Shown here one piece after another: positions 1,282 to 16,787 of a stretch of 24,600 nt of DNA; the first letter of the stretch is position 1; every line of letters starts with the position of its first letter. The translations under genes and the position numbers were made by a program. Where the stretch lies: assembly GCA_036338695.1 (NCBI GenBank), contig JAYZBQ010000078.1, positions 1-24,600 on the forward strand, written 5' to 3'. The DNA is from Myxococcota bacterium (lineage in GTDB: Bacteria > Myxococcota > UBA4151). Below the pieces are notes generated by a model, which saw only the letters and a list, made by a program, of their open reading frames with translations, searched no databases and had not been told where the DNA came from.

Positions 1282-2046
1282 TCAGCGATCGCCGGGCTCG
1301 TCACCCTGAGCAGCGGCTAAAAAGGCGGGCGATTCGCCCCCCCCGTGCAGCGGGATGCAACCGCCGGTAAGATAGCGAGCAGCCGGTGAGTCGAGATACA
1401 GACACAGCGAGGCGAGGTCCTCAGCGGTGGCCATCCGCTGCAGCGGCACCGTCTTGGCGACTCGCTCCACCCCTTCGGCACCGCCGTAATGCGCTAAGCT
1501 GTCCGGTGTCTCGACAAACCCCAAGGCCACGGCGTTGACCCGCAGCGCAGGCGCCCACTCCACCGCAAGGCTTTGCGTGAGATGAATCAAACCCGCTTTC
1601 GCGGCTCCGTAGGCTGCGGTTCCCGGCGAGGGTCGCTGACCACTCACCGAGGCGACGTTGATGATCTGCCCACCCTCGGGCTGCGTCTTCATCACCGCGT
1701 GCGCGGCCGTTGCGCAGTACAGCGGCGCCAAGAGGTTGAGCTCGATGATCTTACGCGAAAAGCTGCTCGAGGCTTGATCAGCCGGCACCATGGGGCTGCC
1801 GCCTGCGTTGTTGATGAGCAGGTCGATGCCGCCGAGATAGGCGGCTGCTTCTTCGCAGGCTGCAGCGGCTTGATCCGGGTCGCGCAGGTCAGCGACCGTG
1901 AAACCGACCCCTTGCGTCAAAGCTTGGTCTGGGCGGCGGCGCGCACAGGTAAACACGCGATAGCCGCTCTCGACAAAAGCCTCGACCAGCCCGCGACCGA
2001 CCCCACGACTACCGCCTGTAATCCAAACTCGTCGCGTCGCCTTCAT
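1282..2046 (-). CDS. SDR family oxidoreductase, Rv3549c-like (HIP cluster associated)
   Basis: TGGSRGVG, NNAGG and YGAAK motifs; RPSPGTAAYGAAKAGL..LTQSLAVEWAP.LRVN and C-terminal LHGGGE.PAFL recalled from this family. Start ATG 2046 (TTG 2052 alternative). Confidence 0.9.
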   Translation of the reverse strand: MKATRRVWITGGSRGVGRGLVEAFVESGYRVFTCARRRPDQALTQGVGFTVADLRDPDQAAAACEEAAAYLGGIDLLINNAGGSPMVPADQASSSFSRKIIELNLLAPLYCATAAHAVMKTQPEGGQIINVASVSGQRPSPGTAAYGAAKAGLIHLTQSLAVEWAPALRVNAVALGFVETPDSLAHYGGAEGVERVAKTVPLQRMATAEDLASLCLYLDSPAARYLTGGCIPLHGGGESPAFLAAAQGDEPGDR

Positions 2047-2141: not shown

Positions 2142-3047
2142 ATGACTCGACTCTGCGATGGGCGCGTGGTGATCGTGACCGGCGCAGGCGCTGGGATTGG
2201 GCGGGCGCACGCGCTGGCGCTCGCAGAAGCCGGCGCCACCGTGATCGTCAACGATTTGGGCACCTCAAACCATGGAGAGGGCGCCAGCGAGGGGCCTGCC
2301 CAGACCGTCGCCAAGGCGATCACCGACGCCGGTGGGCGAGCGCTTGCGAACACAGACGATGTGACCGACAGCGACGCCATGCGCGCGCTCGTCGACGAGA
2401 CGATCTCCACCTTTGGGACCTTACACGCCGTCGTCAACAACGCCGGTTTTGTCCGAGACCGCATGTTTGTTTCCTGCGGTGACGACGAGTGGGATGCGGT
2501 GATGAACGTCCACCTGCGCGGGCACCTCGCCTTGTCTCGTGCGGCTGCCCAATTCTGGCGGGCTCAAGCCAAGGCCGGCGATCCGGTCGATGCGCGCATC
2601 ATCAACACCAGCTCGGGCGCCGGCTTACGCGGCTCGGTGGGACAATCGGCTTACTCAGCAGCCAAAGCGGGGATCCTCGCGCTCACGCTGGTCCAAGCGG
2701 CTGAGCTCAAACGCTATGGCGTGACCGCCAATGTCCTCTCGCCTGCGGCGCGCACGCGTATGACGGAGGCCGTCTTTGCTGAGATGATGGCTCGCCCAGA
2801 GACTGGCTTTGACCGCATGGACCCAGCCAACATCAGCCCGCTGGTCGTCTATCTTGCGAGCGATCGTTCGGGGCATGTCAGCGGGCGTAGTTTTGAGGTG
2901 GAAGGCGGCCTCATCGCTCTCAACAGCGGCTGGCGTCGCGGCGCACAGCGCAGCCAGCAAGCGCGCTGGGATGCGCAGGCGCTCGGATCCGTGATCGACG
3001 AACTGATCGCCGAACAACCGGCGGACACGCCCCCCTACGGCGCCTGA
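2142..3047 (+). CDS. SDR family oxidoreductase (3-hydroxyacyl-CoA dehydrogenase-like), Rv3548c-like
   Basis: DGRVVIVTGAGAGIGRAHAL, VNNAGFVRDRM, DARIINTSSGAGL.GSVGQ..YSAAK; GGAGGAG RBS just upstream of ATG 2142. Confidence 0.92.
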   Translation: MTRLCDGRVVIVTGAGAGIGRAHALALAEAGATVIVNDLGTSNHGEGASEGPAQTVAKAITDAGGRALANTDDVTDSDAMRALVDETISTFGTLHAVVNNAGFVRDRMFVSCGDDEWDAVMNVHLRGHLALSRAAAQFWRAQAKAGDPVDARIINTSSGAGLRGSVGQSAYSAAKAGILALTLVQAAELKRYGVTANVLSPAARTRMTEAVFAEMMARPETGFDRMDPANISPLVVYLASDRSGHVSGRSFEVEGGLIALNSGWRRGAQRSQQARWDAQALGSVIDELIAEQPADTPPYGA

Positions 3048-3535
3048 TTCGCTGCCTCTGGCGGCATCCCAGCGTAGTCGGTGCGGCGATAGTTTTGATG
3101 GCACGCAAAGCAGCCATCGCCGCCCGCCGTCGGCTGCTGAGGGTTCCCCTCCTCATCGGGCGTGACCATCTCCCAGCGCCAGTTCCCGTTCGCCGTATCG
3201 CCGCCCACCTCCAAGCGGGTCATCATCGTCCAGCTCTTGAGCGTCGAACAGTTCGAGTTGCTGTATTGTGCCTTGAGCAGCACCGAGCCCGGCTGAAAAG
3301 CGACCATCTCACCTGGCGGCAAGGTGCCAAGTTCTGGATCGATGCGCTGCGCCCAATCTGTATAAGTCGGCTGCGCCAAGTCGTTGGCGAAGACGCGGAT
3401 CGTGTCGCCCCCGTGCACTGAGCCCTCGGTGCACGGCTTTACCTGCTTCCAGCTCGTCGTGTAATCTTCCGGGAAAGGTGGCTCTTCACCGCAACCGGTG
3501 AGCGCGACACTCGCTGCTAGGACAAAACGCATCAT
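3035..3535 (-). CDS. Cytochrome P460-family (beta-sheet) monoheme lipoprotein
   Basis: Lipobox LTGC; FPEDY..W, VFAN, F.PGSVLLK, GNWRW, C-terminal CFACH followed by DY, which is the P460/c'-beta layout; GGAGG RBS; begins 21 bp after the thiolase stop. Confidence 0.8.
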   Translation of the reverse strand: MMRFVLAASVALTGCGEEPPFPEDYTTSWKQVKPCTEGSVHGGDTIRVFANDLAQPTYTDWAQRIDPELGTLPPGEMVAFQPGSVLLKAQYSNSNCSTLKSWTMMTRLEVGGDTANGNWRWEMVTPDEEGNPQQPTAGGDGCFACHQNYRRTDYAGMPPEAANQAP

Positions 3536-3556: not shown

Positions 3557-4720
3557 TTACAGACGTTGCAGCAGAAGCGCCATCCCCTGACCGCCGCCGA
3601 CACACAAGGTCGCAAGGCCGATCTCTAGGTCCTCATCTTCCAGGGTATGCAGTAGCGTGGTGACGAGGCGGACACCGGTCATGCCGAAGGGGTGCCCCAG
3701 CGCCAGCGCGCCCCCCCGCACGTTCAAACGATCGTCTCGAATGCCGAGCTGCTGCTGGCACGGAATGACCTGCGCAGCGAAGGCTTCGTTGAGCTCGATA
3801 CGGTCGACGTCGGCGAGGGTCATGCCGGCAGCCTTGAGGACCCGCCGTGTCGACTCGACCGGGCCCATACCCATGAGTTCTGGGGACACCGAGCTGACCG
3901 CCGTGGCGATGATCCGGGCGCGCGGCCGCAGCCCGAGCTCGGTCACCCGGCGTCCGCTCATCACAACCGCTGCGGCGGCGCCGTCGTTCAAGGGGCAAGC
4001 GTTGCCCGCGGTCACGCGACCGTCCTCGCGAAAAACAGTCCGCAGCCCTTGCAACCCCTCCAGGCTGGTTCCCGCGCGTGGCGACTCATCCCGATCAAAG
4101 CGTCTGCCGGCGCCGAGCGGGACCGCCACGATCTCACGCTCAAAGCACCCGGTCTCGAGGGCGTGTACCGCCCGGCGCTGGCTCTGAACGGCGTAGGTGT
4201 CCATCTGCTCACGCGTGACCCCGTAGGTATCGGCGACCCGCTCAGCGGTCTCGCCCATCGCCAGGTAAACATCCGGCAGGTCCGGCTCGGCTGCAAAGCG
4301 CGGGTTTTTGCTGCCCTCCATACCATCCGCTTTGCCGACATGGTAGCGACTGATCGCCTCAACGCCGGCGGCAATTTGAACCTGCGCCTCACCGGCTCGA
4401 ATCGCGTGATAAGCCATCCGAAGCGCCTGCAACGAGGAGGCGCAATAGCGATTGACGGTGGCACCTGCCGCGCCAGCCAGACCCGCTAGGAGCGAGACCG
4501 GTCGCGCCATATTGTAACCCTGCTCACCCGCTGGCTGGGCGCACCCGAGGAGCACATCCTCGACCTCGCTTGGGTCAAGCTCCGGCACCTCACCAAGCGC
4601 CGCTTGGATGGTCCAAGCCGCTAAGTCGTCGGCTCGCCAATCGACCAGGCTCCCTTTGAACGCCCGGGCGATGGGTGTTCGCTTGGCTGCAACCAAAACG
4701 GCGTCATGAGGTCGTAGCAT
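3557..4720 (-). CDS. Acetyl-CoA C-acyltransferase (thiolase), resembling the actinobacterial FadA3-type clade
   Basis: NRYCASS active Cys, NEAFA, GHPFG and CVGGGQG; LPDVYLAMGETAE and TAGNACPLNDGA signatures; overlaps the fadD3 stop by 17 bp. Confidence 0.93.
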   Translation of the reverse strand: MLRPHDAVLVAAKRTPIARAFKGSLVDWRADDLAAWTIQAALGEVPELDPSEVEDVLLGCAQPAGEQGYNMARPVSLLAGLAGAAGATVNRYCASSLQALRMAYHAIRAGEAQVQIAAGVEAISRYHVGKADGMEGSKNPRFAAEPDLPDVYLAMGETAERVADTYGVTREQMDTYAVQSQRRAVHALETGCFEREIVAVPLGAGRRFDRDESPRAGTSLEGLQGLRTVFREDGRVTAGNACPLNDGAAAAVVMSGRRVTELGLRPRARIIATAVSSVSPELMGMGPVESTRRVLKAAGMTLADVDRIELNEAFAAQVIPCQQQLGIRDDRLNVRGGALALGHPFGMTGVRLVTTLLHTLEDEDLEIGLATLCVGGGQGMALLLQRL

Positions 4721-6314
4721 CGTGCGCTCGCTCCTTGAGTTTGTATTTGAGCACCTTGCCGCTCGCGTTCATGGGCAACGAGTCGACCCACCGCACTGCG
4801 CGCGGTACCTTGAAATTTGCGAGGCGCTCCCGGCACAGGCTCATCAGCCCCTCCTCCTCGGCGACCGCGCCCTGCTTTGCCACCAAGTAGGCGACGCACA
4901 CCTCACCTAAGCGCTGATCAGGGACCCCGACCACCGCCGCTTGAGCCACCGCTTGATGCGCCAAGAGGACCTGCTCGACCTCCGCAGGGTACACGTTGAA
5001 GCCGCCCACGATCACCATGTCCTTTTTGCGGTCCGTGATCTGGAGGTACCCACGCGCATCGAGCATGCCGATGTCTCCCGTGTGCAAAAACCCATCCGAC
5101 TCGATCGCCTCGGCTGTGGCGACGTCATCGCGCCAGTAGCCGCTCATGACGTTGTAGCCGCGCACCATCACCTCGCCCGCCTCGCCGGCCTTCGCCTGTA
5201 GGCCATCCGAGCGGATAATTTTGACCTCCACGTCAGGGATCGAGCGCCCCGAGGTGGTTGCGATGGTCTCTGGGTCGTCATCGTGGCGACACATGGTCAC
5301 CACGCCGGTGGTCTCCGTTAGACCATACCCGGTGATGACGGTCTCAAAGCCGAGCCGGTGGCGCATCTGCTCGATCAACGTCACGGGAATCACCGCCGCG
5401 CCTGTCACCGCCAACCGCAGGCTCGAGCGGTCGTACGCGTCGAGGTCCTGGCGCGCCAAAATCGTCTGATAAAGCGCCGGAGGACCCGGTAAAACGCTCA
5501 CCCGATCGCGCCCGACGCGCCGAAGTAAGCGCTCGGGGTCAAAGACAGGCTCGGGCAACACGGTGGCGCCGGTCATCAGGCAAGCCAGCCAGCCAGCCTT
5601 GTAGCCGAAGGAGTGGAAGAAGGGCATCGCCACAAGGTACCGATCACCGGCTCGCAGACCGACGACCTCGGCCCAGTCTCGAAACACCCGCAGCGTCTGA
5701 GCGTGTGTGCTCGGCACCCCTTTGGGGGCGCCCGTGGTTCCCGACGTGAACAGAAGGTCGCAGAGATCATGGGCGCGCACCTGACGCCGGCGCGCTGCGA
5801 GCTCAGCGGGTGCCACCTCGGCACCGAGCGCTACAAAGCGCTGCCAGGACACCGCGCGCTCGTCGAGGCCGTCGAGCAGGACGACGTGGTCGAGCTGCGG
5901 CTGGCTTTGAGCGCGCGCGAGCAGGTCGAGGTAATCGGTGTCGAGGAAGCCCTCGATGGTGACGAGAAGACGGGCGCCGCTACGCTCTAAAATATAGGCT
6001 GCCTCATCGCCTCGGTACCGCGTGTTGATCGGCACCAGGCACGCGCCCACGCGCTGAATGCCCAGGGCCACAAGCACCCAATTCGGGTGATTCGGCGCCC
6101 ACAGCGCGACGCGATCACCCTGCGCGACGCCGAGCGCCATCAAGGCGGTCGCCGCCCGGTCCACAAGCTCTGGTAAGTCCGCGAAACGGATGCGCACCGA
6201 GTCAGCCTCGATGAACACGGCGTCGCCGTGAGCCTGCGCGGCGTGATCGACGAGGTCAGCGAGGGTCTGATAGACAAGATCGCCGCGGCAGCCTGATGCT
6301 TCAAAATCGGCCAT
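4704..6314 (-). CDS. fadD3: HIP-CoA ligase (FadD3-family acyl-CoA synthetase)
   Basis: FTSGTTGAPKG, PFFHSFGYKAGWLACL (FadD3-type), GYGLTE, LHTGDIG, GGFNVYPAEVE, GKVLK. Start reassigned to ATG 6314 with an AAGGGAG RBS; lies next to echA20-ipdABC. Confidence 0.88.
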   Translation of the reverse strand: MADFEASGCRGDLVYQTLADLVDHAAQAHGDAVFIEADSVRIRFADLPELVDRAATALMALGVAQGDRVALWAPNHPNWVLVALGIQRVGACLVPINTRYRGDEAAYILERSGARLLVTIEGFLDTDYLDLLARAQSQPQLDHVVLLDGLDERAVSWQRFVALGAEVAPAELAARRRQVRAHDLCDLLFTSGTTGAPKGVPSTHAQTLRVFRDWAEVVGLRAGDRYLVAMPFFHSFGYKAGWLACLMTGATVLPEPVFDPERLLRRVGRDRVSVLPGPPALYQTILARQDLDAYDRSSLRLAVTGAAVIPVTLIEQMRHRLGFETVITGYGLTETTGVVTMCRHDDDPETIATTSGRSIPDVEVKIIRSDGLQAKAGEAGEVMVRGYNVMSGYWRDDVATAEAIESDGFLHTGDIGMLDARGYLQITDRKKDMVIVGGFNVYPAEVEQVLLAHQAVAQAAVVGVPDQRLGEVCVAYLVAKQGAVAEEEGLMSLCRERLANFKVPRAVRWVDSLPMNASGKVLKYKLKERAHDATTS

Positions 6315-6325
6315 GCTGCGCTCCC

Positions 6326-6355
6326 TTGACGGCAAACTGAAACACGTTTCATTCT
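6326..6355 (+). promoter_or_regulatory. Putative sigma70-type promoter for the echA20-ipdABC arm
   Basis: TTGACG (6326-6331), 18-bp spacer, CATTCT (6350-6355), within the only intergenic gap between the divergent operons. Confidence 0.5.
6338..6351. promoter_or_regulatory. 14-bp palindromic operator TGAAAC-AC-GTTTCA matching the KstR consensus TnnAACnnGTTnnA
   Basis: Perfect 6-bp inverted arms; AT-rich against a GC-rich background; lies between the -35 and -10 and overlaps the -10. Confidence 0.75.
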
Positions 6356-6387
6356 GCGGTGGCAAGCGCCGAGGAACGACGACGACG

Positions 6388-7134
6388 ATGGCGATCACAA
6401 CGCATTTCGATGGAGCCATCGCCGAGGTCGTGGTGGACCGACCACCCGTCAACGCGCTCGACAGCCAGGCCTGGTTTGAGCTGGCTGAGGCCATCACCGC
6501 CGCAGGGCGACGTAACTCGGTCTGTGTCGTGGTGCTGCGCGCCGAGGGGCGGGGCTTCAACGCCGGCGTCGACCTCAAAGCGTGTCAGGCGAGCGACGGA
6601 CACGATGAGCTGCTGGCGGTCAACAGAGCATGTTTTGCTGCCTTCAAGGCGATCTATGAGTGCGAGGTCCCGGTGCTCGCCGCGGTGCACGGCTTCTGTC
6701 TGGGCGGTGGCGTCGGTTTGGTCGGAAACGCCGACCTAGTGATCGCCGCGAGCGACGCGAGCTTCGGTTTGCCCGAGGTGGACCGGGGCGCGCTCGGCGG
6801 CGCCACGCAGCTGGCGCGGCTGGTGCCGTCACCTCAGCGGCTGCGCAGTCTTGTGTTCACGGGCGAGCGGATCGGCGCAGACGAGCTGGCGCGCTATGGC
6901 TCGGTTCAAGAGGTCGTTGCGCCCGAGCGCTTACGTGAGGAGGCGCTGCGCTGGGCGGGTAAACTTGCGCAGAAAGACCCCAAGGTGCTGCGCGCCGCCA
7001 AGGACTGCCTCAACGGGATCGATCCGGTCGACGTCAACAGGAGCTATCGCTACGAGCAGGGCTACACCTTTGAGCTCAACCTCAGCGGGCATGGTGACGC
7101 CGCTCGACAGGCTTTTGTCCGCGGAGAGGACTGA
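6388..7134 (+). CDS. echA20: EchA20-type crotonase (HIEC-CoA hydrolase, steroid ring D opening)
   Basis: PPVNAL, AEGRGFNAGVDLK, GFCLGGGVGLVGNAD, FGLPEVDRGALG, DVNRSYRYEQGYTFELNL; GAGGA RBS before ATG 6388; immediately precedes ipdA. Confidence 0.9.
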   Translation: MAITTHFDGAIAEVVVDRPPVNALDSQAWFELAEAITAAGRRNSVCVVVLRAEGRGFNAGVDLKACQASDGHDELLAVNRACFAAFKAIYECEVPVLAAVHGFCLGGGVGLVGNADLVIAASDASFGLPEVDRGALGGATQLARLVPSPQRLRSLVFTGERIGADELARYGSVQEVVAPERLREEALRWAGKLAQKDPKVLRAAKDCLNGIDPVDVNRSYRYEQGYTFELNLSGHGDAARQAFVRGED

Positions 7135-7955
7135 TGCGCCCCGATAAGCGCATGACGCCTGAGGAGGCGGTGGCTGAACTCGAAGACGGGATGACCATCG
7201 GGATCGGCGGCTGGGGCTCTCGACGCAAGCCGATGAGGCTCGTGCGCGCCTTGCTCGAGAGCGCGCTGAGTGAGCTGACCGTTGTCAGCTATGGCGGCCC
7301 GGACGTCGGCTTGTTGGCGCGCGCCCAGCGCATCAAGCGCCTCCTCTATGGCTTTGTTTCGCTCGACTCGATTCCGCTCGAGCCCCACTTTCGCCAAGCG
7401 CGTCAACGGGGCGCCTTCGAGGCGGTTGAGATGGACGAGGGGATGCTCTGGTGGGGGCTCTATGCTGCGGCGCTCAAGCTCCCCTTTCTACCGACGCGTG
7501 CCGGGCTCGGCTCCGACGTGGTGACGCGCTCAAGCCTGCTCAAAACCGTCCGCTCACCCTATGCGGATTGCGAGGAGCTCGTCGCCGTTCCGGCGATCAA
7601 ACTCGACGCCGCCTTCATCCACGTCCACCGCGCCGACGCGGCAGGCAATGGCATGATCCTTGGACCCGACCCCTATTTTGATCGGCTCTTTGCGCAAGCC
7701 GCCAAGCACACCTACATGAGCTGCGAGCAGCTCGTTGAGACCGAGTCGCTCTTTGATGAGGCGACCTATCAGAGCGAGTCGATCGCCCGCCTTCACGTCC
7801 ATGGCGTCATCGAGGCGCCCAAAGGGGCAGGGTTTACCGAGTGCCTACCGGACTATGCGCGCGACGAGGCGCTGCAATCGCTCTATGCACAAGGAGCCAA
7901 AGACGACGAAGCGTGGGCTGAGTTCGAGCGCCGGTTCATGCAGGAGGCCCCATGA
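7134..7955 (+). CDS. ipdA: Steroid ring C-cleaving hydrolase, alpha subunit (class I CoA-transferase fold)
   Basis: GMTIGIGGWGSRRKPM, YGGPDVGLL, YGFVSLDS, EMDEGM, LPFLP.RAGLGS, DPYFD.LF, PDY.RDE, all matching IpdA/Rv3551 as recalled. Confidence 0.92.
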   Translation: MRPDKRMTPEEAVAELEDGMTIGIGGWGSRRKPMRLVRALLESALSELTVVSYGGPDVGLLARAQRIKRLLYGFVSLDSIPLEPHFRQARQRGAFEAVEMDEGMLWWGLYAAALKLPFLPTRAGLGSDVVTRSSLLKTVRSPYADCEELVAVPAIKLDAAFIHVHRADAAGNGMILGPDPYFDRLFAQAAKHTYMSCEQLVETESLFDEATYQSESIARLHVHGVIEAPKGAGFTECLPDYARDEALQSLYAQGAKDDEAWAEFERRFMQEAP

Positions 7956-8674
7956 GCGAGCGCCGCGCCGATATCTGCATCGCCGCGATCGCCGACGCCT
8001 TCGCCACCGACCGAGAGATCTTGGCGAGCCCGATGGGCCGCCTGCCCTCGCTGGGCGCCCGACTCGCTCGTCAGACCACCTCACCCCAGCTGATGATCAG
8101 CGACGGGGTCGCAAGCCTCACCACGGAGGCGGGTGCGCTCGAGGCGCACCTGCCCTATCGCGAGGTCTTTCACACGCTCTGGTCAACCAAACGACACGTG
8201 ATGATGGGCGCCAGTCAGCTCGATGCCTACGGCAACCAAAACATTAGCTGCATCGGCCCGTTCGAGGCGCCCAAGGCGATGCTCATCGGTGCGCGCGGCG
8301 CGCCGGGTAACACGCTGTATCATCGAACCTCTTACTGGATCCCCGTTCAGTCGCCGCGCAGCTTTTGTGAGGCGGTCGATTTCGTCTGCGGCGTCGGCTT
8401 TGATCGTGCGCGCTCCCTCGGCGCACGAGACAGCCGCTATCACGACCTGCATCGGGTCGTTACGAACCTCGGCGTCTACGGGTTCAATCAGGAAGGTCGC
8501 CTCACTGCGCTGACCTTACACCCCGGCGTCGACCAAGCCGCAGTCAACCAAGCCAGCGGCTTTGAGATCGACTGCTCGAAGGCGACGGTCAGTCGGCCCC
8601 CGACCGCCCTCGAGATGGAGTGGATCGAGCGCTTTGACCCTGAGGCGAAGCGCTATCAGGAGGTCAGCGAGTGA
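7952..8674 (+). CDS. ipdB: Steroid ring C-cleaving hydrolase, beta subunit
   Basis: ASPMG, GARLAR, RHVMMGASQLD.YGNQNIS, G.RGAPGNT..H.TSYW, VVTNLGV, LHPGV; ATGA overlap with ipdA. Confidence 0.92.
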   Translation: MSERRADICIAAIADAFATDREILASPMGRLPSLGARLARQTTSPQLMISDGVASLTTEAGALEAHLPYREVFHTLWSTKRHVMMGASQLDAYGNQNISCIGPFEAPKAMLIGARGAPGNTLYHRTSYWIPVQSPRSFCEAVDFVCGVGFDRARSLGARDSRYHDLHRVVTNLGVYGFNQEGRLTALTLHPGVDQAAVNQASGFEIDCSKATVSRPPTALEMEWIERFDPEAKRYQEVSE

Positions 8675-9735
8675 GCCCCGTCAGCAGCAGCTTTTGTGCG
8701 CTGGTCGGCTGTCGCGTCCCGATCGTTCAAACCGGCATGGGCTGGGTGGCGACACCGCCCCTCGTCGCCGCCGTGAGCGAGGCCGGTGCGTTTGGCATTT
8801 TAGCGGGCGCCACGCTGACGCTCGACGAATTGCGAGCGAGCATCGACGCGGTCCAGGCGGCGACCGCTCAACCCTTTGGCGTGAACTTGCGCTCCGACGC
8901 ACCCGACGCTGCGGCGCGCGTAGACCTCTTGATCGAAAAGCGGGTCCGCTTGGCGAGCTTTGCGGCGGCGCCCCAGCGCGCGCTGATCGATCGCCTCAAG
9001 GGGCAGGACGTCCTGGTCATGCCGACGGTCGGTAAGCGACGCCACGCGGAGAAGGTTGCGCAGTGGGGCGTCGATGCGCTGATCGCGCAGGGACATGAGG
9101 GAGGTGGTCACACCGGACCGGTCCCGACCAGTCTCTTGCTCCCAGACGTCATCGACGCCGTGGATCTCCCCGTGCTCGCAGCCGGTGGCTATCGCTGCGG
9201 TCGTGGCTTGGTCGCCGCCATGAGCTTTGGCGCCGCAGGCATCGCCATGGGGACGCGCTTCTTGCTGAGCCAAGAGAGCCCGGTCCCGCAGCAGGTCAAG
9301 GCGCGCTACCTCGAGGCGCAGGTGACGGACACCACGGTCTCGACGCGTATCGACGGGCACCCTCAACGGGTGATCACGACCCCCTTCGTGCATCGGCTCG
9401 AGGGGCGCGGCGCGCTGGGGCGACTCTTTCTGGCTCTGCGCTCAGGCCTCGCCTTTCGACGGGTGACCGGGGTTGGGTTGTTTGGCCTCTTATCCGCCGG
9501 TCTGACGATGCGCCGCAGGCAAGGTCTGAGCCTCGCACAAGCGATCTCTGCGGCGAATGCGCCGATGCTCACCCAGCAAACCATGGTCGACGGTCAGCTC
9601 AACGCCGGCATCCTACCCACTGGGCAGGTCACCGGTCTGATCGAACACACCCCGCCTGCGCGCGAGATCATCGAGCGCATCATGTCCGAGGCAGACGAGA
9701 CCCTAAACCGCCTCACTGGAGCCCGAAATGGCTGA
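8671..9735 (+). CDS. ipdC: IpdC-type flavoprotein (nitronate monooxygenase/FabK-like fold) of HIP catabolism
   Basis: PIVQTGMGWVA, PFGVNLR, QGHEGGGHTG, GIAMGTRFLL.QES, AANAPML, GILPTGQV.G; GTGA overlap with ipdB. Confidence 0.88.
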   Translation: MSPVSSSFCALVGCRVPIVQTGMGWVATPPLVAAVSEAGAFGILAGATLTLDELRASIDAVQAATAQPFGVNLRSDAPDAAARVDLLIEKRVRLASFAAAPQRALIDRLKGQDVLVMPTVGKRRHAEKVAQWGVDALIAQGHEGGGHTGPVPTSLLLPDVIDAVDLPVLAAGGYRCGRGLVAAMSFGAAGIAMGTRFLLSQESPVPQQVKARYLEAQVTDTTVSTRIDGHPQRVITTPFVHRLEGRGALGRLFLALRSGLAFRRVTGVGLFGLLSAGLTMRRRQGLSLAQAISAANAPMLTQQTMVDGQLNAGILPTGQVTGLIEHTPPAREIIERIMSEADETLNRLTGARNG

Positions 9736-10567
9736 ACTGGTCCTGTACCGTGTCGACGAAGGCATCGCTCGTATCACACTCAACCGGCCTGAGTATCGCA
9801 ACGCTCAAAACGTCGCGATGCTGCACGCGCTCGATGATGCGATGAGCGCTGCAGCCTCTGATGACTCGGTCAAGGTGATCATCCTCGCCGGGGCGGGCGA
9901 TCACTTCAGCGCCGGTCACGACATCGGCACGCCGGCGCGCGACATCCCGGAGCCCTTTGAGCGGCGCGCAACGCAGTGGTGGGACCATGCGGATAAATCC
10001 GATTCAGAGAGCACCTTCGTTCGCGAACGGGAGGCCTACATCGGGCTATGCCGTCGCCTGCGCGCGGTCCCCAAACCGACCGTCGCGCAGGTTCAAGGCG
10101 CCTGCGTCGCAGGGGGGCTGATGCTGGCGTGGTGCTGCGACCTCATCGTCGCCAGCGAGGACGCCTTTTTTGCGGACCCGGTGGTGCGCATGGGGATCCC
10201 GGGCGTCGAGTGGTTTGCCCATGTTCATCAGCTCAACGCGCGGCTCGCCAAAGAGTTTTTGTTTACCGGCACGCGGCTGACCGCTGCGCGCGCCCACGAG
10301 ATCGGGATGATCAACCGCTGCGTCCCGGCCGATCAGCTCGAGACCCAAGTCAACGAGCTCGCTGAGCGCATCGCAACCATGCCGCGCATGGGCTTGGCGC
10401 TCACCAAGATGGTGATCAACCAAGCAGAAGACCGGTTGGGGCTCCGAGACACGGTCGAGCACGCCTATGGACTTCATCACTTTGCACACACGCACAATGC
10501 GGCGCAGAGCGACTATTTAGCCGGGCAGGACGTTCAAAGCATCAAGAAGAGCCTAAAGGACGACTAG
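9728..10567 (+). CDS. Enoyl-CoA hydratase (EchA13-like crotonase)
   Basis: ITLNRPEYRNAQN, HFSAGHDIG, QGACVAGGLMLAW.CDLIVAS, FADPVVRMGIPGVE; 8-bp overlap with ipdC. Confidence 0.88.
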   Translation: MAELVLYRVDEGIARITLNRPEYRNAQNVAMLHALDDAMSAAASDDSVKVIILAGAGDHFSAGHDIGTPARDIPEPFERRATQWWDHADKSDSESTFVREREAYIGLCRRLRAVPKPTVAQVQGACVAGGLMLAWCCDLIVASEDAFFADPVVRMGIPGVEWFAHVHQLNARLAKEFLFTGTRLTAARAHEIGMINRCVPADQLETQVNELAERIATMPRMGLALTKMVINQAEDRLGLRDTVEHAYGLHHFAHTHNAAQSDYLAGQDVQSIKKSLKDD

Positions 10568-11692
10568 TTGAACCTGACCGACCGCCCCGAAGACATCGAA
10601 TTCCGAGCTGAAGCGAGGGCTTGGTTGCGCAAGCACGTGCCCACCGGTTTAGCCAGCGGCGACACCGAGCAAGGGTTCGCAGAGCACCTTGAGTGGGAGC
10701 GCCAACTGCACGCGGCTCGGTGGGCGGTTGTCAGCTGGCCAAAAGCTTACGGAGGGCGCGACGCGTCGATTCGGCAGTGGCTGATTTTTGAGGAAGAGTA
10801 TTATCTGGCAGGCGGGCCACAGCGGGTCACCCAAAACGGTATCTTCCTGCTCGCGCCGACCCTCTTTGAGTTCGGGACACAGGCACAAAAGGACGCCATT
10901 TTGCCGGCGATGGCTGCTGCGGAGACGCTCTGGGCGCAGGCGTGGTCCGAGCCCGGCGCTGGCTCCGATCTCGCCGCCGTACGCAGCCGCGCCGAGCGCG
11001 TCGATGGAGGCTGGAGGCTCTACGGGCAAAAGACGTGGTGCACGAGGGCGGCTTTTTGTGACGCCTGCTTTGGCTTGTTTCGCACCGACCCCGACTCAGC
11101 GCGTCACCAGGGGCTCACCTACTTTATGGCGCCCCTGACAGGAGAAGGTGTCGAGGTGCGCGGGTTTGGTCGCCTCGACGGTGATGAAGGGTTCGCTGAG
11201 GTCTTCTTCGACGGCCTCTTCGTACCCGACGACGCCGTCATCGGAGCGGTTTCGCAAGGCTGGAAGGTCGCCATGGCGACGACCTCGTCTGAGCGCGGGC
11301 TGACGTTACGCAGTCCCGGGCGATTCCTGGCCGCGACCAAGCGCCTTGACCTCCTGCGGCGCCAACAACCTGTCGATCCGGCTCGCGACCTGCGCTGTCT
11401 TGATGCGGCGCTCAAGGCCGAGGCCTATCGAGTCTTTACGGAGGCTGCCGTCCACAACATGGAGCGTGGTCAGGACCTTGGCTCACGCTCGAGCCTCATG
11501 AAGGTCTACTGGTCTGAGCTCGACATCGAGCTGCATGAGACGGCTCTTGAGCTTCTGGGTGATGACGCAGCCCTCGAGCATGACTGGAGCAAAGCGTATC
11601 AGTTTAGCCTGGCTGGGCCGATCTACGCCGGGACCAACGAGATCCAGCGCAAAATCATCGCCGAGCGCTTGCTCGGCTTACCGAGGCGCTGA
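10568..11692 (+). CDS. fadE31: Acyl-CoA dehydrogenase, FadE31-like (catalytic subunit of a heteromeric ACAD)
   Basis: WP..YGGRDA...W.IFEEEY, WAQAWSEPGAGSDLA, SSERG.TLRSP.RF, KVYWSELD, GPIYAGTNEIQR.IIAERLLGLPR; TTG start abuts the previous stop. Confidence 0.85.
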   Translation: MNLTDRPEDIEFRAEARAWLRKHVPTGLASGDTEQGFAEHLEWERQLHAARWAVVSWPKAYGGRDASIRQWLIFEEEYYLAGGPQRVTQNGIFLLAPTLFEFGTQAQKDAILPAMAAAETLWAQAWSEPGAGSDLAAVRSRAERVDGGWRLYGQKTWCTRAAFCDACFGLFRTDPDSARHQGLTYFMAPLTGEGVEVRGFGRLDGDEGFAEVFFDGLFVPDDAVIGAVSQGWKVAMATTSSERGLTLRSPGRFLAATKRLDLLRRQQPVDPARDLRCLDAALKAEAYRVFTEAAVHNMERGQDLGSRSSLMKVYWSELDIELHETALELLGDDAALEHDWSKAYQFSLAGPIYAGTNEIQRKIIAERLLGLPRR

Positions 11693-11695
11693 CCG

Positions 11696-12688
11696 ATGGG
11701 TTACCCCCTGAGCTCCGACCAGAAGGCTCTCTCGGACGCGATCGGCGAGCTCAGTCGACGCCACTGGACGCTCGACCACCGCGAGCGCGCATGGTTTGGC
11801 GATGAGGCCGCCGAGAGCGAGCTCAAGCGAGCGCTCATCGACGCGGGCGTCCTCGGGCTCATGGCGCCTGAGACGTGCGGCGGCATGGGGCAAAACCTCG
11901 TCGACAGCGCCGCCGCGCTCGAGCGGTTCGGGTATGATCTTTTTCCGGGCTGGGTCGCGCACCACGTCGTCGCCTGTTGCCTGTTAGTACGCCACCCGGA
12001 GCTCGCCGCCGAGGCAGGGCAGGGCAAGCCCCTCCTGCGTCTGCTCGACGCAGACCGCCACCTCCCCTATCCGCAGCAGGTCGAGACGGTGATCGCTTGG
12101 GGTGAGCAAGGTGTTGAGCTGCTGTCAGAGTTAACCTTCAAAAAGCTCGAAAGCACCGATAAAAACCGACCTCTTGCGCGCCTAGTCCGAGCGGGTCGAC
12201 GTCACGCGCTCAAGCACGCTCAGGGCGATGCGTTCGGCCGGCGAGCCTCCGAACTGAGCCTCCTCGCGGACGCCCTTCAATTGCTGGGCATGGGTCAAGC
12301 GGCGCTCGATATGAGCGTCGACTACGTCAGCCAGCGCCATCAGTTCGGTCAGCCCGTCGGCGCGCAACAAGCGGTTAAGAATCAGCTGGCAGATGCCCTG
12401 ATTGCGCTCGAGTTTGCGCGCCCCATGGTCCAGCGCGCCGCCTACGCTTGGCAGGAGGAAGAGGCGCTCACCGCCGGCCGCGTCAGCGGCTGCTGGATCC
12501 TCGTGACCGAGGCGGCACAGCGGGTGGAGCGCGCCGCATTGCAAGTTCACGGCGCAATGGGTTACTCGATCGAATATCCGCTGCATCAACTGCTCAAGCG
12601 GAGCTGGTCGCTGCGCGCAGCCCACGGCCGGCTTAGCGAGCATCGAGCGCAGGCACAGGAGTGGCTTTTGGGAGGGAACAGCGAATGA
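11696..12688 (+). CDS. fadE32: Acyl-CoA dehydrogenase partner subunit, FadE32-like
   Basis: Short, divergent ACAD with R.QFGQP.G..QAVK.QLAD and LQVHGAMGY..EY.L; lacks the C-terminal GTNEI motif; tandem with fadE31. Confidence 0.75.
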   Translation: MGYPLSSDQKALSDAIGELSRRHWTLDHRERAWFGDEAAESELKRALIDAGVLGLMAPETCGGMGQNLVDSAAALERFGYDLFPGWVAHHVVACCLLVRHPELAAEAGQGKPLLRLLDADRHLPYPQQVETVIAWGEQGVELLSELTFKKLESTDKNRPLARLVRAGRRHALKHAQGDAFGRRASELSLLADALQLLGMGQAALDMSVDYVSQRHQFGQPVGAQQAVKNQLADALIALEFARPMVQRAAYAWQEEEALTAGRVSGCWILVTEAAQRVERAALQVHGAMGYSIEYPLHQLLKRSWSLRAAHGRLSEHRAQAQEWLLGGNSE

Positions 12689-13839
12689 CGGAAGCGTACA
12701 TCATCGACGCCGTGCGAACGCCCGTTGGGCGACGCCGAGGCGGCCTTGCTCAGGTGCATCCGGCGGACCTGGGCGCGCACGTTCTGCAAGCCCTCATCAA
12801 CCGCACGAAGATCCCGGATGAGGCGGTCGACGACGTCGTCTTTGGCTGCGTCGACGCCGTGGGGCCGCAAGCGGGGGACATCGCAAGGACCTGCTGGCTT
12901 GCGGCTGGCTTTCACGAGTCCGTGCCCGGTGTGACCGTCGATCGACAGTGCGGCTCCTCGCAACAGGCGCTGCATTTCGCAGCGCAAGGCGTGATGTCTG
13001 GCACCCAAGACCTGGTGATCGCAGGCGGGGTGCAGAACATGAGCATGGTGCCGATTGGCGCCTCCATGATCGCAGGCAAGGAGCTGGGGCACGCCGACCC
13101 CTTTAGCGGCTCTTCGGGCTGGATCAAGCGCTACGGCGGTCAACCGGTCAATCAGTTCTACGGCGCCGAGATGATCGCCAAGCGCTGGGGCTGCACGCGT
13201 GAAGACATGGAGGCCTTTGCGCTGCAGAGCCATCAGCGAGCGATTACAGCTCAGGATGAGGGGCGTTTTGACAACGAGCTCTCGCCTTTGCTCGGGGTGA
13301 CACAGGACGAGGGACCGCGCGCTGAGACCAGTCTTGAGAAGATGGCGAGTCTCGACGTCCTGATGCCTGACGGGCGCATCACGGCAGCCTGCTCGTCTCA
13401 GATCTCCGACGGCGCCGCAGCGCTCTTGGTCGCTTCGCGCGCCGCGCTCGACCGCTACGGGCTCACCCCCCGGGCGCGCGTGCACCACCTGAGCGTGCGC
13501 GCAGCCGACCCGATCTGGATGCTCACGGCGCCGATCCCTGCGACGCGATATGCGCTGAAGCGCTGTGGTCTGAGCCTGAACGAGATCGACCTTTTCGAGG
13601 TGAACGAGGCCTTTGCGTCCGTGCCGATGGCTTGGCAGCGCGAGCTCAACGCCGACCCTGCCAAACTCAACGTGAGCGGCGGCGCGATTGCGCTGGGACA
13701 CCCCTTAGGTGCTACGGGCGCTCGCTTGATGACGACCCTGCTCAACGAACTCGAGCGTACGGGGGGTCGTTACGGGCTGCAGACCATGTGCGAGGGCGGC
13801 GGTCAGGCGAACGTGACGATTATTGAAAGGCTCACATGA
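12685..13839 (+). CDS. fadA6: Thiolase FadA6 of HIP catabolism
   Basis: MTEAYIIDAVRT, VPGVTVDRQCGSSQQA, AGGVQNMS, MLTAPIPAT, NEAFA, GHPLG, MCEGGG; ATG 12685 overlaps the fadE32 stop; GGAGGG RBS. Confidence 0.88.
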   Translation: MTEAYIIDAVRTPVGRRRGGLAQVHPADLGAHVLQALINRTKIPDEAVDDVVFGCVDAVGPQAGDIARTCWLAAGFHESVPGVTVDRQCGSSQQALHFAAQGVMSGTQDLVIAGGVQNMSMVPIGASMIAGKELGHADPFSGSSGWIKRYGGQPVNQFYGAEMIAKRWGCTREDMEAFALQSHQRAITAQDEGRFDNELSPLLGVTQDEGPRAETSLEKMASLDVLMPDGRITAACSSQISDGAAALLVASRAALDRYGLTPRARVHHLSVRAADPIWMLTAPIPATRYALKRCGLSLNEIDLFEVNEAFASVPMAWQRELNADPAKLNVSGGAIALGHPLGATGARLMTTLLNELERTGGRYGLQTMCEGGGQANVTIIERLT

Positions 13840-14861
13840 AACTCGGACTGATGATCGGATACTCTGGCGCCCATTTGGACCTCCCGGTCGATCTGGTTCA
13901 AGAGGCTGAGAGCCTTGGTTATGACTCGGTCTGGATGGCCGAGGCGTGGGGTAACGACGCATGCACGCCCGGGGGGTACCTCGCGGCCGTGACCGAACGC
14001 ATCCGGCTGGGCACCGCGATCATGCAGGTCCCAGCAAGAACACCGGCCAACGCGGCGATGACCGCAATGACGCTCGATGAATTGAGCAATGGGCGCTTCA
14101 TCATGGGGATCGGCATGAGCGGGCCCCAGGTGGTCGAGGGCTGGCACGGCAAACCCTACCGTCTGACCCTGACTCAGCTGCGAGAATACATCCAGATTCT
14201 GCGTCGGATTTTCGCACGAGAGGAGCCGCTCGAATTTGAGGGCAAGTATTTCCGTATCCCTTACGATGGCGAACGCTCGACAGGACAAGGCAAGCCCTTA
14301 AAGAGCCTCATGCATGGCACCGACCGGATCCCGATTTACACCGGGAGTTTGGCGCCCAAGTCGCAGCAGATGTGCGGCGAGTACGCCGACGGCTGTCTGC
14401 TCACCAACATGATCCCAGAGGTCCCCGAAGCGGTCATGGAGAACCTTGAGGTGGGCTTCGAACGCGCCGGCGGCGGCAAGAGCCTTGAGAACTTTGACCT
14501 CGCCTGCACCGTTGCGGTCGTGCTCGACGACGACCTCGAGCGGGCGCGCACGCCGCTGCGACAGCAACTGGCACGTTACGTCGGCGGGTTTGGGACCAAG
14601 AAAACCAACTTCTACAAAGACTATCTGAGCCGCTGCGGCTGGGCTGAAGACTGCGAAAAGATCCAAGATCTTTTCCTCGCAGGCCATGCCCGACAAGCCA
14701 TCGATGCGGTCCCGAACGAGATGATCGACGCCCTCTATTTGGTGGGTCCCAAGGAGCGGATCCAAGAGCGCTTTGAGGCCTGGAAGCGCTCCCCGATCGG
14801 TACCTTTATGGTCGGCAGTCGCGACCCGCGCGTGATCCGCTTGCTGGCCCAGTGTATGTAG
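13836..14861 (+). CDS. LLM-class (luciferase-like) F420-dependent oxidoreductase, Rv3520c-like
   Basis: MKLGL..GY, AE.LGYDSVW.AEAWG.DA, RLGTAIMQ.PARTP..AAM.A.TLD.LS.GRF, SGPQVVEGWHG, G.GKPLKS; ATGA overlap with fadA6; F420 genes adjacent. Confidence 0.9.
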   Translation: MKLGLMIGYSGAHLDLPVDLVQEAESLGYDSVWMAEAWGNDACTPGGYLAAVTERIRLGTAIMQVPARTPANAAMTAMTLDELSNGRFIMGIGMSGPQVVEGWHGKPYRLTLTQLREYIQILRRIFAREEPLEFEGKYFRIPYDGERSTGQGKPLKSLMHGTDRIPIYTGSLAPKSQQMCGEYADGCLLTNMIPEVPEAVMENLEVGFERAGGGKSLENFDLACTVAVVLDDDLERARTPLRQQLARYVGGFGTKKTNFYKDYLSRCGWAEDCEKIQDLFLAGHARQAIDAVPNEMIDALYLVGPKERIQERFEAWKRSPIGTFMVGSRDPRVIRLLAQCM

Positions 14862-14865
14862 CACC

Positions 14866-15333
14866 ATGCGTGCCCCGTCGGCGGTCTTCATCACGGTGGC
14901 AGCGCTCGTCTCAGCGGGCTGCTCCCCCAAAACGCCGCCTCCCAAGCCGGAAAAGGTCGTCGAGAAGGTGCCGGAGCCTGCGCCGCGCGTCGTGCCGCTG
15001 ATCCCCAAGATGAAGGGCATCAATGAACAGATGGAGCGGCTTGTTCAGGCTGTCAAAGCCGACCAGCGAGAACAGGCGACTGAAGTCGCCAACCTGATCA
15101 ACAACCTCGCGCTCGCCATTCACGTGGAGCACGACCTGCAGCCGGGTTATGGCGATCAGTTTGCGGCGATCACCGCCGACTTCCAAGCCGCCAGCAAGGC
15201 CATGATCGAAGCGACTAAGGGGTCTCCTCAGGACCTAAAAATAGCGCTGCGTCATCTGCATGATCAGTGCCTTCGCTGCCATGATCAGGCACCTGCAGCT
15301 GCCGGAGCGGGCGTCTGCCAGCTCGCCGACTAA
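14866..15333 (+). CDS. Monoheme class II (cytochrome c'-like, four-helix) lipoprotein
   Basis: Lipobox SAGC, Pro/Lys-rich tether, amphipathic helical body and a single C-terminal CLRCH (15268-15282); starts 4 bp after the LLM stop. Confidence 0.75.
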
Positions 15334-15962
15334 CGGTTCTTGAGCCCCTCGATGCTGAGGCTCGCGCTGCCGCCATACTTGCGATTGAGGTGCAGCAACA
15401 CCGGGGTCATCGCCTCCAGGGCGATCGTATTCCTGAGCGGTCCTGCATCGAGGACGCTGACCTCAAGCTGTGCCAGCAGTGGGAGCATCTCCTCACGATC
15501 GGCTTTGGCGCCGCAGACCAAGACGTCGCCAGCGATAGTGTGCTCGAGGTCTGCGAGGTGGGTGTGGCTGATGTGGTGCAAAGCCGCCACCACGCGCCCC
15601 GCGTCACCGAGGATCTCTTGCGCCTCGAGCGCCGCCGACTGACCAGGCGGCAAGAAGACCTGCCGGACCTTGGGCGGCTTGAGCGGCACCGTGATGTCCA
15701 CGAGGATCCGACCTGCGAGCATCGGCTTGATCGCCTCGAGCACGGCTCGGTGGGCGCCGTACGGCACGCAGAGCATCGCGTAGTCAGCGCCCTCGAGCGC
15801 ATGGGCATAGTCACCGCCAACAACGCCGAGCCCCTCGGCGGCTTGCGCGCCGCGCGCCGCGTCCCGCGAGCCGAGGCGCACCGAGACACCCGCTCTGGCA
15901 AACCGACGCGCCAAACCTCGACCTTCTTGCCCCGTACCGCCGATCAACGCGATGGTCTTCAT
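15330..15962 (-). CDS. fno: F420H2:NADP+ oxidoreductase (NADPH-dependent F420 reductase)
   Basis: [63 protein letters not shown]...LE.MTP.L..LN.KY; AGGAGG RBS before ATG 15962. Confidence 0.92.
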
Positions 15963-16022
15963 GGAACCCTCCTGACCCACCTACGGTTGACCAAAAAAGC
16001 TTCGGCGTACAAGACCCACACC

Positions 16023-16787
16023 ATGACAGACGAAGCCTTACAGATCGAAGCCATCTCCGGCTTACCGACGGTGGAGCCAGGTGATGACCTCGCCGCCTTG
16101 GTCATCCAGGCTTGCGCGGCGCAAGGCGGCTTGCGGTCAGGTGATGTGCTGGTCGTGGTCTCTAAGGTGGTCGCGCGGGCAGAGGGGCGCTTTGTGAACC
16201 TCGAGACGGTGCGACCAGACCCGACCTCGGTCAAGCTCAGCCGCGTGGTCAAGAAAGACCCGCGGCTGGTGCACCTGATCCTGCAAGAGAGTCGCGGCTT
16301 ATCGCGCACGGCGCCTGGGGTGATGATCGTTCGCCACAAGCTCGGTTTTATCTCGGCGAACGCGGGCATCGACTCAAGCAATGTCGGTCGCTCCGAGGAG
16401 TGGGTTTTGTTGCTCCCGGAAGACCCGGACGGCTCGGCACGCACACTGCGGCAACGGCTGGAGGCTGAATTTGGTGGACCCATCGGCGTGATCATCTCGG
16501 ACTCGCACGGTCGCCCGTTCCGCAAAGGGACCCAAGGGGTCGCCATTGGCTTATCGGGCATCCCGGCGCTGCTCGACCAGCGAGGTCAGAAGGACCGCTT
16601 TGGGCGGATCCTGACCAGCACAGAGCTCCCCCTCGCCGACCAGCTCGCAGGCGCCGCCGACCTCGTCGCAGGCGCGGGCGCCGAAGGGGTCGCCGCCGTT
16701 CGCTTGCGCGGGCTGACATGGTCGGTCGATGACGCGGCGCGCGCCTCGGATCTCCAACGCCCAGCCGACAAAGACCTGTACGCATGA
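16023..16787 (+). CDS. cofE: Coenzyme F420-0:L-glutamate ligase (stand-alone CofE, no C-terminal nitroreductase domain)
   Basis: GLP.V.PGDDLA, GDVLVVVSKVVARAEGR, ANAGIDSSN, LLPEDPD.SA, IISDSHGRPFR.G, ADQLA.AA.LV.G; real start ATG 16023. Confidence 0.95.
   Translation: MTDEALQIEAISGLPTVEPGDDLAALVIQACAAQGGLRSGDVLVVVSKVVARAEGRFVNLETVRPDPTSVKLSRVVKKDPRLVHLILQESRGLSRTAPGVMIVRHKLGFISANAGIDSSNVGRSEEWVLLLPEDPDGSARTLRQRLEAEFGGPIGVIISDSHGRPFRKGTQGVAIGLSGIPALLDQRGQKDRFGRILTSTELPLADQLAGAADLVAGAGAEGVAAVRLRGLTWSVDDAARASDLQRPADKDLYA

Follow-up and report, generated by a model that had tools for sequence, protein, structure and literature searches.

Members of the phylum Myxococcota are known as makers of sterols. 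A stretch of 24,600 nucleotides from a genome labelled Myxococcota bacterium (contig JAYZBQ010000078.1 of GenBank assembly GCA_036338695.1), referred to below as the window, carries a cluster of genes for the degradation of HIP, the steroid intermediate that holds rings C and D, and the question it raises is whether the host consumes whole sterols, takes up HIP left by other organisms, or keeps the genes for some other purpose. The window is the entire contig C78 of the source genome (G000; 3.36 Mb in 99 contigs, 93.6% complete, 1.0% contaminated). G000 to G003 are four genomes of one genus, G004 and G005 are further members of the same family, and in the taxonomy of the genome set used the class holding G000 consists of six genomes, all of one family. 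At a probability of roughly 0.8, we read G000 as a likely degrader of whole sterols, with a near-complete pathway spread over its genome and marked by a shared KstR-type operator, and as neither a HIP cross-feeder nor a sterol maker. Such an organism would likely live partly on sterols from other organisms. The enzymes and their chemistry appear to be known ones; the host and the regulatory wiring appear to be new.

The HIP cluster of the window and the upper sterol pathway

An earlier note, made from the letters of the window alone, had named the genes fadD3, echA20, ipdABC, fadE31/32 and fadA6; all of them are found at 4704-13839 as intact open frames. The HIP-CoA ligase FadD3 is encoded on the minus strand (4704..6314; PRK07656 score 714.6, cut-off 657), and divergently from it, on the plus strand, lies the gene of EchA20/ScdY, the predicted ring D hydrolase (6388..7134; PRK07938, which we take to be the EchA20 model, 367.7 against 260; 44% to a Sphingobium gene annotated echA20). 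This is followed on the same strand by ipdA (7134..7955; best PDB matches 6con_A and 6co6_A), ipdB (7952..8674; best PDB matches 6co6_B and 6con_B), ipdC/scdK (8671..9735), a gene for an EchA13/ScdN-type hydratase (9728..10567; PRK08290 403.5 against 280; 50-59% to genes of proteobacterial clusters), genes for two acyl-CoA dehydrogenase subunits, FadE31-like (10568..11692) and FadE32-like (11696..12688), and the gene of the thiolase FadA6/ScdF (12685..13839; PRK07801, presumably the FadA6 model, 681 against 591; catalytic motifs present). The name ipdC is given from FabK/NMO-family matches (PF03060) and position; its positional counterparts in 32 loci match it at 45-79%. The names fadE31 and fadE32 are given from position and similarity, without a specific model; both products have Pfam acyl-CoA dehydrogenase domains, and the matches to syntenic genes are 49-81% for the former and weak for the latter. 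In an ATGA overlap with fadA6 begins the gene of an F420-dependent luciferase-like enzyme of the Rv3520c subfamily (13836..14861, plus strand; TIGR03559 357 against 335). Each gene from echA20 to this one overlaps or sits at most three bases from the next, which indicates one operon.

On the fadD3 arm, a thiolase gene overlaps the end of fadD3 (3557..4720, minus strand; PRK07851 555, below the cut-off of 580; catalytic Cys/His/Cys motifs present) and is found in the same place in G001 and at locus L030. Beyond it are two genes of short-chain dehydrogenases/reductases (SDRs), one Rv3549c-like (1282..2046, minus strand; PRK07856 331.1 against 255) and one Rv3548c/ScdE-like, for the HIP side chain (2142..3047, plus strand; PRK07791 434.3 against 373), the two models being, as we assume, those of the Rv3549c-like and Rv3548c-like enzymes. 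The two SDRs, the thiolase at 3557-4720, echA13, a KstR box, the luciferase-like enzyme and an F420 gene set at 15330-20464 go beyond the earlier note. Single-haem lipoproteins flank the steroid genes at both arm ends (3035-3535 and 14866-15333) and are syntenic in G001 and G002. The first, P460-like cytochrome ends the fadD3 arm (3035..3535, minus strand; PF16694 30.1 against 27; CxxCH at residue 142) and stands in the same place in both genomes; the second has one CxxCH (14866..15333, plus strand).

The IpdAB proteins of the window are distinct from type I CoA-transferases. IpdA and IpdB match PDB 6con/6co6, which we take to be mycobacterial and rhodococcal IpdAB, at E 8e-82 and 8e-60, and glutaconate CoA-transferase at only 2e-20 and 7e-11. 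IpdA Glu102 and IpdB Arg81 and Arg115, which presumably correspond to the catalytic Glu105, Arg92 and Arg126 of IpdAB, are invariant in 33/33 aligned rows; IpdB Gly52 occupies the position of Gly57 of the beta subunit, and the CoA-transferase glutamate is absent there. According to the accessible part of PMC5380842, Gly57 of the beta subunit replaces that glutamate in IpdAB, and echA13 is not part of the HIP cluster of M. tuberculosis. The HIP set as a whole is complete in G000, comprising FadD3, EchA20, IpdC, IpdF, FadA6 and two acyl-CoA dehydrogenase pairs (named by position); ipdF (PRK07831 422 against 336) and the IpdE1/E2-like pair (fadE30/33) lie on another contig, C13.

The genes of the upper pathway are found elsewhere in G000. 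Contig C13 holds hsaA-, hsaC-, hsaD- and hsaE-like genes side by side, adjacent hsaG- and hsaF-like genes, a ferredoxin, three acyl-CoA dehydrogenase pairs, FadD19-, Ltp3-, Ltp4- and ChsH2-type genes, an SCP2 gene, a KstR-like TetR gene and kstD besides ipdF; where its gene names come from PRK models, the models are presumed to be those of the named genes. Both PRK07798 and PRK08313 are above cut-off among the upper-pathway genes. C32 carries kshA1 and a KSI-like gene, C28 carries kshA2, a Cyp125-like P450 gene and echA19, and C22 carries delta4-dehydrogenase-like and 5alpha-reductase-like genes. The best structural match of KstD is 7p18 (E 2e-149), with its four catalytic positions kept; that of HsaA is the 3-HSA hydroxylase (E 9e-83), and that of the C28 P450 is labelled CYP125MRCA (E 2e-141). 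KshA_C is above cut-off twice, and KshA1 retains its Rieske and iron ligands. The kshA, hsaA and cyp125 genes are intact, with 74-90% identity among the full-length copies of the genus, and G000 also encodes a ferredoxin and a ferredoxin-NADP reductase. The aerobic 9,10-seco set of KstD, KshA, HsaA, C, D and E/F/G is present by best matches, motifs and operon context, several members being below equivalog cut-offs. The earlier note had pointed to kstD, kshAB and hsaA-D as genes to be looked for in the rest of the genome: counterparts of kstD, hsaA, hsaC and hsaD and two kshA-like genes were found, and kshB and hsaB were not. As a side observation, the steroid cluster of C13 is interrupted midway by three genes, for a PPIase, HupE/UreJ and DUF3604 (C13:27363-30960, L084).

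Judged by characterised homologues, a sterol side chain would be shortened by Cyp125, FadD19, the FadE26/27-like pair, EchA19 and Ltp3/4, after which KSI, KstD, KshA and HsaACD would open rings B and A and HsaEFG would finish that fragment. FadD3 would activate HIP, and IpdE1/E2, the SDRs, a thiolase, IpdF and IpdC would yield HIEC-CoA; EchA20 would open ring D and IpdAB ring C, and FadA6, FadE31/32 and EchA13 would lead to propionyl-, acetyl- and succinyl-CoA. KshA and HsaA may draw their electrons from general carriers, ferredoxin and ferredoxin-NADP reductase.

The KstR-type operator and its repressor

Between the divergent fadD3 and echA20 genes lies a perfect palindrome, TGAAACACGTTTCA (6338..6351), which matches the published KstR motif, and directly upstream of it is a -35-like hexamer, TTGACG (6326..6331, plus strand), the putative promoter element of the echA20 operon. 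In the accessible parts of PMC1995591 and PMC5348764, the 14-bp KstR motif of mycobacteria is given as TnnAACnnGTTnnA. It is matched once in the window, where 0.13 matches are expected, and 13 of 100 shuffles also contain a match, so that the window count alone is weak. The operator and the upstream TTGAC are conserved in 5/5 aligned genomes, and over the whole of G000 there are 11 intergenic sites, against a null mean of 1.6 and a maximum of 5 in 30 simulations. These sites precede fadD3/echA20, the hsaA operon, kstR, cyp125/echA19, two SCP2 genes and the delta4-dehydrogenase operon; in addition, kshA2 has an exact site ahead of its likely start and kshA1 has one with a single mismatch. A stricter box pattern was derived from the G000 sites, which makes its count in G000 circular, and the test lies in the loose published motif and in the other genomes. 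Strict boxes number 10, 14, 11, 7 and 7 in five KstR-positive family genomes and 1 in G005, a genome without kstR, ipdA, kshA, hsaA and cyp125; elsewhere, family f24 has 12-16, G014 and G023 have none, and the count for an Actinomadura control is 10.

The candidate repressor is the TetR protein encoded at C13:23932-24510, for which KstR is both the best PDB and the best NCBIfam match and PF17925 is above cut-off. As for KstR2, its domain PF17932 is below cut-off in G000, G001 and G002, marginal in G004 (27.3 against 26.4) and scores up to 103.6 in the Actinomadura control, and the 11 matches in G000 to the presumed KstR2 motif all lie inside genes, none of them being intergenic. In Nocardia and Tsukamurella the KstR box occurs by cyp125 and not by echA20, as is expected where KstR2 runs the HIP genes, an arrangement described in the accessible parts of PMC5380842 and PMC7807495. 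It is likely that in G000 one KstR-type repressor covers both pathway halves that mycobacteria split between KstR and KstR2. An early sterol-CoA intermediate would free this repressor from about eleven boxes, and the HIP operon would switch on together with the upper pathway rather than through HIP-CoA. The accessible text of PMC8708139 makes no mention of KstR motifs.

Boxes of this type were also seen beside genes of less obvious function. One lies between an SCP2 gene and a pair encoding an acyltransferase and an MpaB/Lcp-type oxygenase (PF09995) at C98:44238-46500 (L210), possibly a side-chain or isoprenoid-cleaving step. On the same contig (C98:50568-53052, L210) a perfect box precedes a second P450, without a PDB match at E<=1e-40, and an IpdC/NMO paralogue. 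Another box stands before a pectinacetylesterase-family lipoprotein gene and a DUF2817 gene (C4:18058-20376, L208), which are candidates for surface release or capture of sterol esters, and the hsaACDE operon is headed, directly behind its box, by an amidohydrolase_2 gene (C13:2997-3848, L083).

Alternatives, origin and host

Several results weigh against reading G000 as a degrader of whole sterols. HsaA (398/450), HsaD (198/400), KstD (588/788) and EchA19 (330/400) score below their NCBIfam cut-offs, as does Ltp4 on its equivalog model. Structures of BphC type score higher against the HsaC candidate (216 and 211 bits) than 2zi8 does (153 bits), and the C13 TetR reaches only 82.5 on the KstR model NF033703, the cut-off being 280. 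No KstR box precedes the ipdF/ipdE operon, the SDR pair or kstD in G000; one does precede kstD in G004, and both kstD and ipdE/F in G095. A KshB-type reductase was found in 0/6 family genomes and in 8/12 other genomes searched, and no flavin reductase (Flavin_Reduct, HsaB-type) in G000-G003, so that both oxygenases, KshA and HsaA, would lack their dedicated reductases. A Mce4-like uptake system was not seen in a motif scan, and no 3beta-hydroxysteroid entry enzyme was identified. Finally, a bile acid or some other steroid may be what the pathway really acts on, and the phylum name rests on the labels of relatives together with repeats and signatures, not on a tree with cultured references. The best match to the 3beta-HSD family, on C58, was discarded as an entry enzyme, for it sits among oleABCD-looking genes; the thiolase-like, hydrolase, ligase and SDR set at C58:31228-35809 (L212) resembles the presumed oleABCD set of olefin synthesis.

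The missing reductases, entry enzyme and uptake system are what speaks for an organism that only cross-feeds on HIP or seco-steroids, its upper-pathway genes being inactive for want of KshB and HsaB, an alternative that the earlier note had also raised. G000, however, encodes Cyp125-, FadD19-, KstD-, two KshA- and HsaACDEFG-like proteins besides the HIP enzymes, and its kshA, hsaA and cyp125 genes are conserved in the genus, each behind the same operator. Sphingobium Chol11, moreover, degrades bile acids without a distinct KshB or HsaB, as the accessible part of PMC8399759 has it, and G004 keeps one gene for an HsaB-type flavin reductase within its sterol cluster. Cross-feeding is thus improbable for G000, and the likely mineralisation of steroids through a true ring C/D module, which the earlier note had put first, agrees with the gene set of this genome. 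A better candidate for HIP cross-feeding than G000 may be G111, of another family of the phylum: at its locus L107 (G111:C73) IpdABC are nested in Acidimicrobiia (98/97), pointing to a separate acquisition, and no match to KshA, HsaA, Cyp125 or KstR was found.

A similarly small chance attaches to the alternative that G000 in fact uses 7-oxygenated steroids, bile acids among them, rather than membrane sterols. The operon does contain echA13, a gene tied to cholate degraders in the accessible part of PMC5380842, and G000 has a 5alpha-reductase-like gene as well as the delta4-dehydrogenase; but the accessible part of PMC7807495 lists echA13/scdN, in a degrader of phytosterols, among the late steps on ring C, and Cyp125, FadD19, Ltp3/4 and the SCP2 proteins act on long alkyl side chains, their genes lying behind the same boxes.

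That the cluster came recently from a mycobacterium-like actinomycete, or is a chimera of assembly or binning, is largely refuted and very improbable. Three of its features are mycobacterial, namely the echA20-ipdA-ipdB-ipdC order, the KstR box and the Rv3520c-type gene, and the codon distance of the steroid genes is borderline (0.055, equal to the 95th percentile of random gene sets, whose mean is 0.041). On the other side, the GC3 (GC content at third codon positions) of 36 steroid genes is 0.767 against 0.776 for the genome, C78 ranks 44 among 63 contigs by tetranucleotide distance, and the window has 62-67% GC throughout without a step. In the same-genus genome G001 the order is the same from the SDRs to fadE32, and fadA6 is followed by the luciferase-like gene, the F420 genes, the OmpA gene and the TSP3 gene, continuing into genes that lie on contig C86 in G000; in G002 both parts of the cluster are present on separate contigs. 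The contig is therefore not chimeric. The genome of locus L001 was not counted as independent synteny support.

The order of the first four genes had suggested an actinobacterial source to the earlier note, and this stands in part. The echA20-ipdA-ipdB-ipdC order is shared by the Actinomycetes loci examined, G004, G060 and L030, whereas the order is ipdA-ipdB-echA13-ipdC-echA20-fadE31-...-fadA6 in Novosphingobium, Sphingobium and Burkholderia, and echA20 likewise follows ipdC in most of the other Myxococcota-labelled loci. The window, on the other hand, joins its actinomycete-order head to a proteobacterial-type tail (echA13-fadE31-fadE32-fadA6). Trees of IpdABC were built from 32 hand-chosen loci and the window, and then from 24 rows after 9 near-redundant ones were removed, with an assumed root, three proteobacteria sampled and no mixture model. 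In these trees the G000 family is one clade (100/99), which the split between Actinomycetota and Pseudomonadota (93/99) places with the former, outside the Actinomycetes (100/100) and weakly with G060, L030 and Acidimicrobiia (81/85). A grouping with Mycobacteriales (Nocardia, Tsukamurella), and with it a mycobacterial donor, is rejected (p-AU 2.6e-5), as is a single clade of all Actinomycetota rows that excludes the G000 family (p-AU 0.021). Since groupings with Pseudomonadota (p-AU 0.26) and with the other Myxococcota-labelled clade (0.11) are not rejected, no donor is named. The set would be old in the G000 family and was likely exchanged early with Actinomycetota, in either direction.

The host itself was described in the earlier note as a diderm of Myxococcota type, which is supported: the window encodes two CxxCH lipoproteins and a TSP3-OmpA protein, and the TIGR02232 cysteine-rich repeat is above cut-off in 3/4 surface proteins tested, with passing repeats on C78 and on C28, its motif being carried by 100 of the 2794 G000 genes called by a simple custom gene caller. 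In the window the repeat occurs in a 5'-cut gene with a C-type lectin domain (3..539, plus strand; TIGR02232 38.1 against 20.8; PF00059), and a TSP3-repeat protein with a CTERM-like tail and the TSP3-OmpA protein, both syntenic in G001, occupy 20448..24598 on the minus strand. The MYXO-CTERM label survives as to shape, the C-terminus being of the form GCSC-hydrophobic-RRRR, and finds no CTERM model match at E<=0.001. In the marker protein RpoB, G000 shares 93-94% identity with the L001 genome, labelled Myxococcota bacterium; in a tree of 28 RpoB rows, with no cultured named reference among them, the G000 family is a deep branch, separate from the 5 actinobacterial rows and apart from the clade with most other Myxococcota-labelled metagenome-assembled genomes (MAGs). 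A record titled Spirochaetaceae (L010 and L123) has an RpoB inside that MAG clade, so that its title is likely wrong and it offers no spirochaete steroid degrader.

That the genes recycle self-made sterols or hopanoids is hardly credible: sterol synthesis is reported for some Myxococcota in the accessible literature and the earlier note had named its genes as a check, but no squalene-hopene or oxidosqualene cyclase domain was matched in the 93.6% complete G000.

F420 genes, distribution and comparison with known systems

Downstream of the operon lies a block of F420 genes: an NpdG/Fno-like F420H2:NADP oxidoreductase gene (15330..15980, minus strand; TIGR01915 132.2, below the cut-off of 149.8; PF03807), cofE-cofD-cofC (16023..18249, plus strand; TIGR01916 247.9 against 180.65, TIGR01819 256 against 257.45, TIGR03552 82.9 against 105) and cofG-cofH for FO synthase (18180..20464, minus strand; TIGR03550 395.4 against 213.35, TIGR03551 439.1 against 374.1). 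The luciferase-like enzyme is the sole PF00296 match in a search of G000 for that family and is 93% identical in G001, the top value of the cluster. The block of this gene, npdG and the cof genes follows fadA6 in G000 and G001, both of its halves occur in G002, and it is absent from G004. A bound KstR site at Rv3520c/Rv3521 in mycobacteria is described in the accessible part of PMC1995591. In family f24, at loci L267 (G095:C90, 2799) and L269 (G100:C439, 2714), the divergent cofE and npdG genes have a KstR box between them, which would place F420 synthesis in that family under control of the sterol repressor. For the genus of G000, the idea that KstR controls the cof genes directly was rejected, since the interval from npdG to cofE contains no box in G000, G001 or G002 even when two mismatches are allowed. 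The idea that F420 generally stands in for KshB was likewise rejected: G004 and G065 have no KshB-type gene, G004 has no CofD match and G065 is absent from the matches listed. A tally of PF01933 over the phylum (76/201) was discarded as an F420 count, since its top-scoring loci L230, L234 and L239 gave no match to the CofD of the window.

In the phylum as a whole, IpdA (E<=1e-55) occurs in 6 of 401 sampled genomes and a KstR homologue in 10 of the 401, all in families f1 and f24. In the class of G000, IpdA is found in 4/6 genomes, and KshA, HsaA and Cyp125 each in 4/5 other family genomes. Of the 80 loci from the scan, 12 are titled Myxococcota, Myxococcales or Deltaproteobacteria, the remainder being mostly Acidimicrobiia and Actinomadura relatives; records named Polyangiales and Minicystis are among the further matches. 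Within the phylum the trait is scattered, yet it recurs. Among Myxococcota-labelled MAGs with ipdA (L146-L175 and L176-L188; G404-G422), a KshA-like gene is mostly present, but HsaA went unmatched at E<=1e-70 in 9 of the 15, possibly a sign of a different route for ring A.

A full-text literature search gave no report of steroid degradation by Myxococcota in titles and abstract openings, subscription papers and supplements lying outside it. The surveys PMC4810484 and PMC5790920, in their accessible parts, confine aerobic steroid degradation to Actinobacteria and Proteobacteria, and the words 'delta' and 'Myxo' are absent from their main texts as accessible; some MAGs in PMC5790920 are assigned no further than Proteobacteria, a name that at the time included the Myxococcota group. 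In the accessible part of a 2026 survey of Myxococcota, 'steroid' and 'sterol' are absent. If our reading is true, a third phylum is added to sterol turnover, which bears on where the pathway arose, and the compact genome of 3.4 Mb makes testable the role of the Rv3520c-type F420 enzyme, the working of KshA and HsaA without their reductases and the single-repressor timing of both halves. A wider proposal, doubtful when all its parts are taken jointly, is that sterol catabolism is old in several Myxococcota families; that the ancestral layout was one KstR for the whole pathway, the KstR/KstR2 split being a later actinobacterial change, so that an origin of the pathway in mycolic-acid bacteria would not be required; and that F420 in the G000 genus is made chiefly for the fadA6-coupled Rv3520c-type enzyme, which would perform an undescribed F420H2-dependent sterol step or feed reduced flavin to HsaA in the stead of HsaB.

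Four known systems invite comparison, each as described in the accessible parts of the sources given. The first is the HIP pathway with its KstR2 regulon in M. tuberculosis, R. jostii RHA1 and M. smegmatis (PMC5380842). Every enzyme of Table 1 there has a counterpart in G000, the two SDRs, echA20, ipdABC, fadA6, fadD3 and fadE31/32 in the window and ipdF and fadE30/33 on C13; the echA20-ipdA-ipdB-ipdC order and the IpdB without the CoA-transferase glutamate (Gly52) are alike. Unlike that system, G000 has no KstR2 over cut-off and a KstR-type box at the fadD3/echA20 promoter, and in contrast to the mycobacterial and rhodococcal operon it has echA13 and the Rv3520c-type enzyme inside the HIP operon and a diderm Myxococcota host. 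With the mycobacterial KstR regulon (PMC1995591) G000 shares the 14-bp palindrome, boxes before kstR, cyp125, hsaA and kshA, and an Rv3520c-type gene under a KstR box; it differs in having the HIP operon under the box as well and a distant repressor, and in that kshB, hsaB and mce4 were not found. The proteobacterial scd clusters of Comamonas TA441, Novosphingobium, Sphingobium and Burkholderia (bioRxiv 10.64898/2026.09.18.752586; PMC8399759) resemble the window in their long operon ending in hydratase, two acyl-CoA dehydrogenases and thiolase with scdN/echA13, and the Sphingomonadaceae also lack a distinct KshB and HsaB (PMC8399759), whereas their IpdA is only 49-51% identical, no KstR box precedes ipdA in the three loci examined, and G000 has the actinobacterial gene set for alkyl side chains. 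The aerobic 9,10-seco degraders (PMC4810484, PMC5790920), finally, have counterparts in G000 for KstD, KshA and HsaA, C, D, E, F and G, and what sets G000 apart from them is a host phylum outside the Actinobacteria and Proteobacteria of those surveys.

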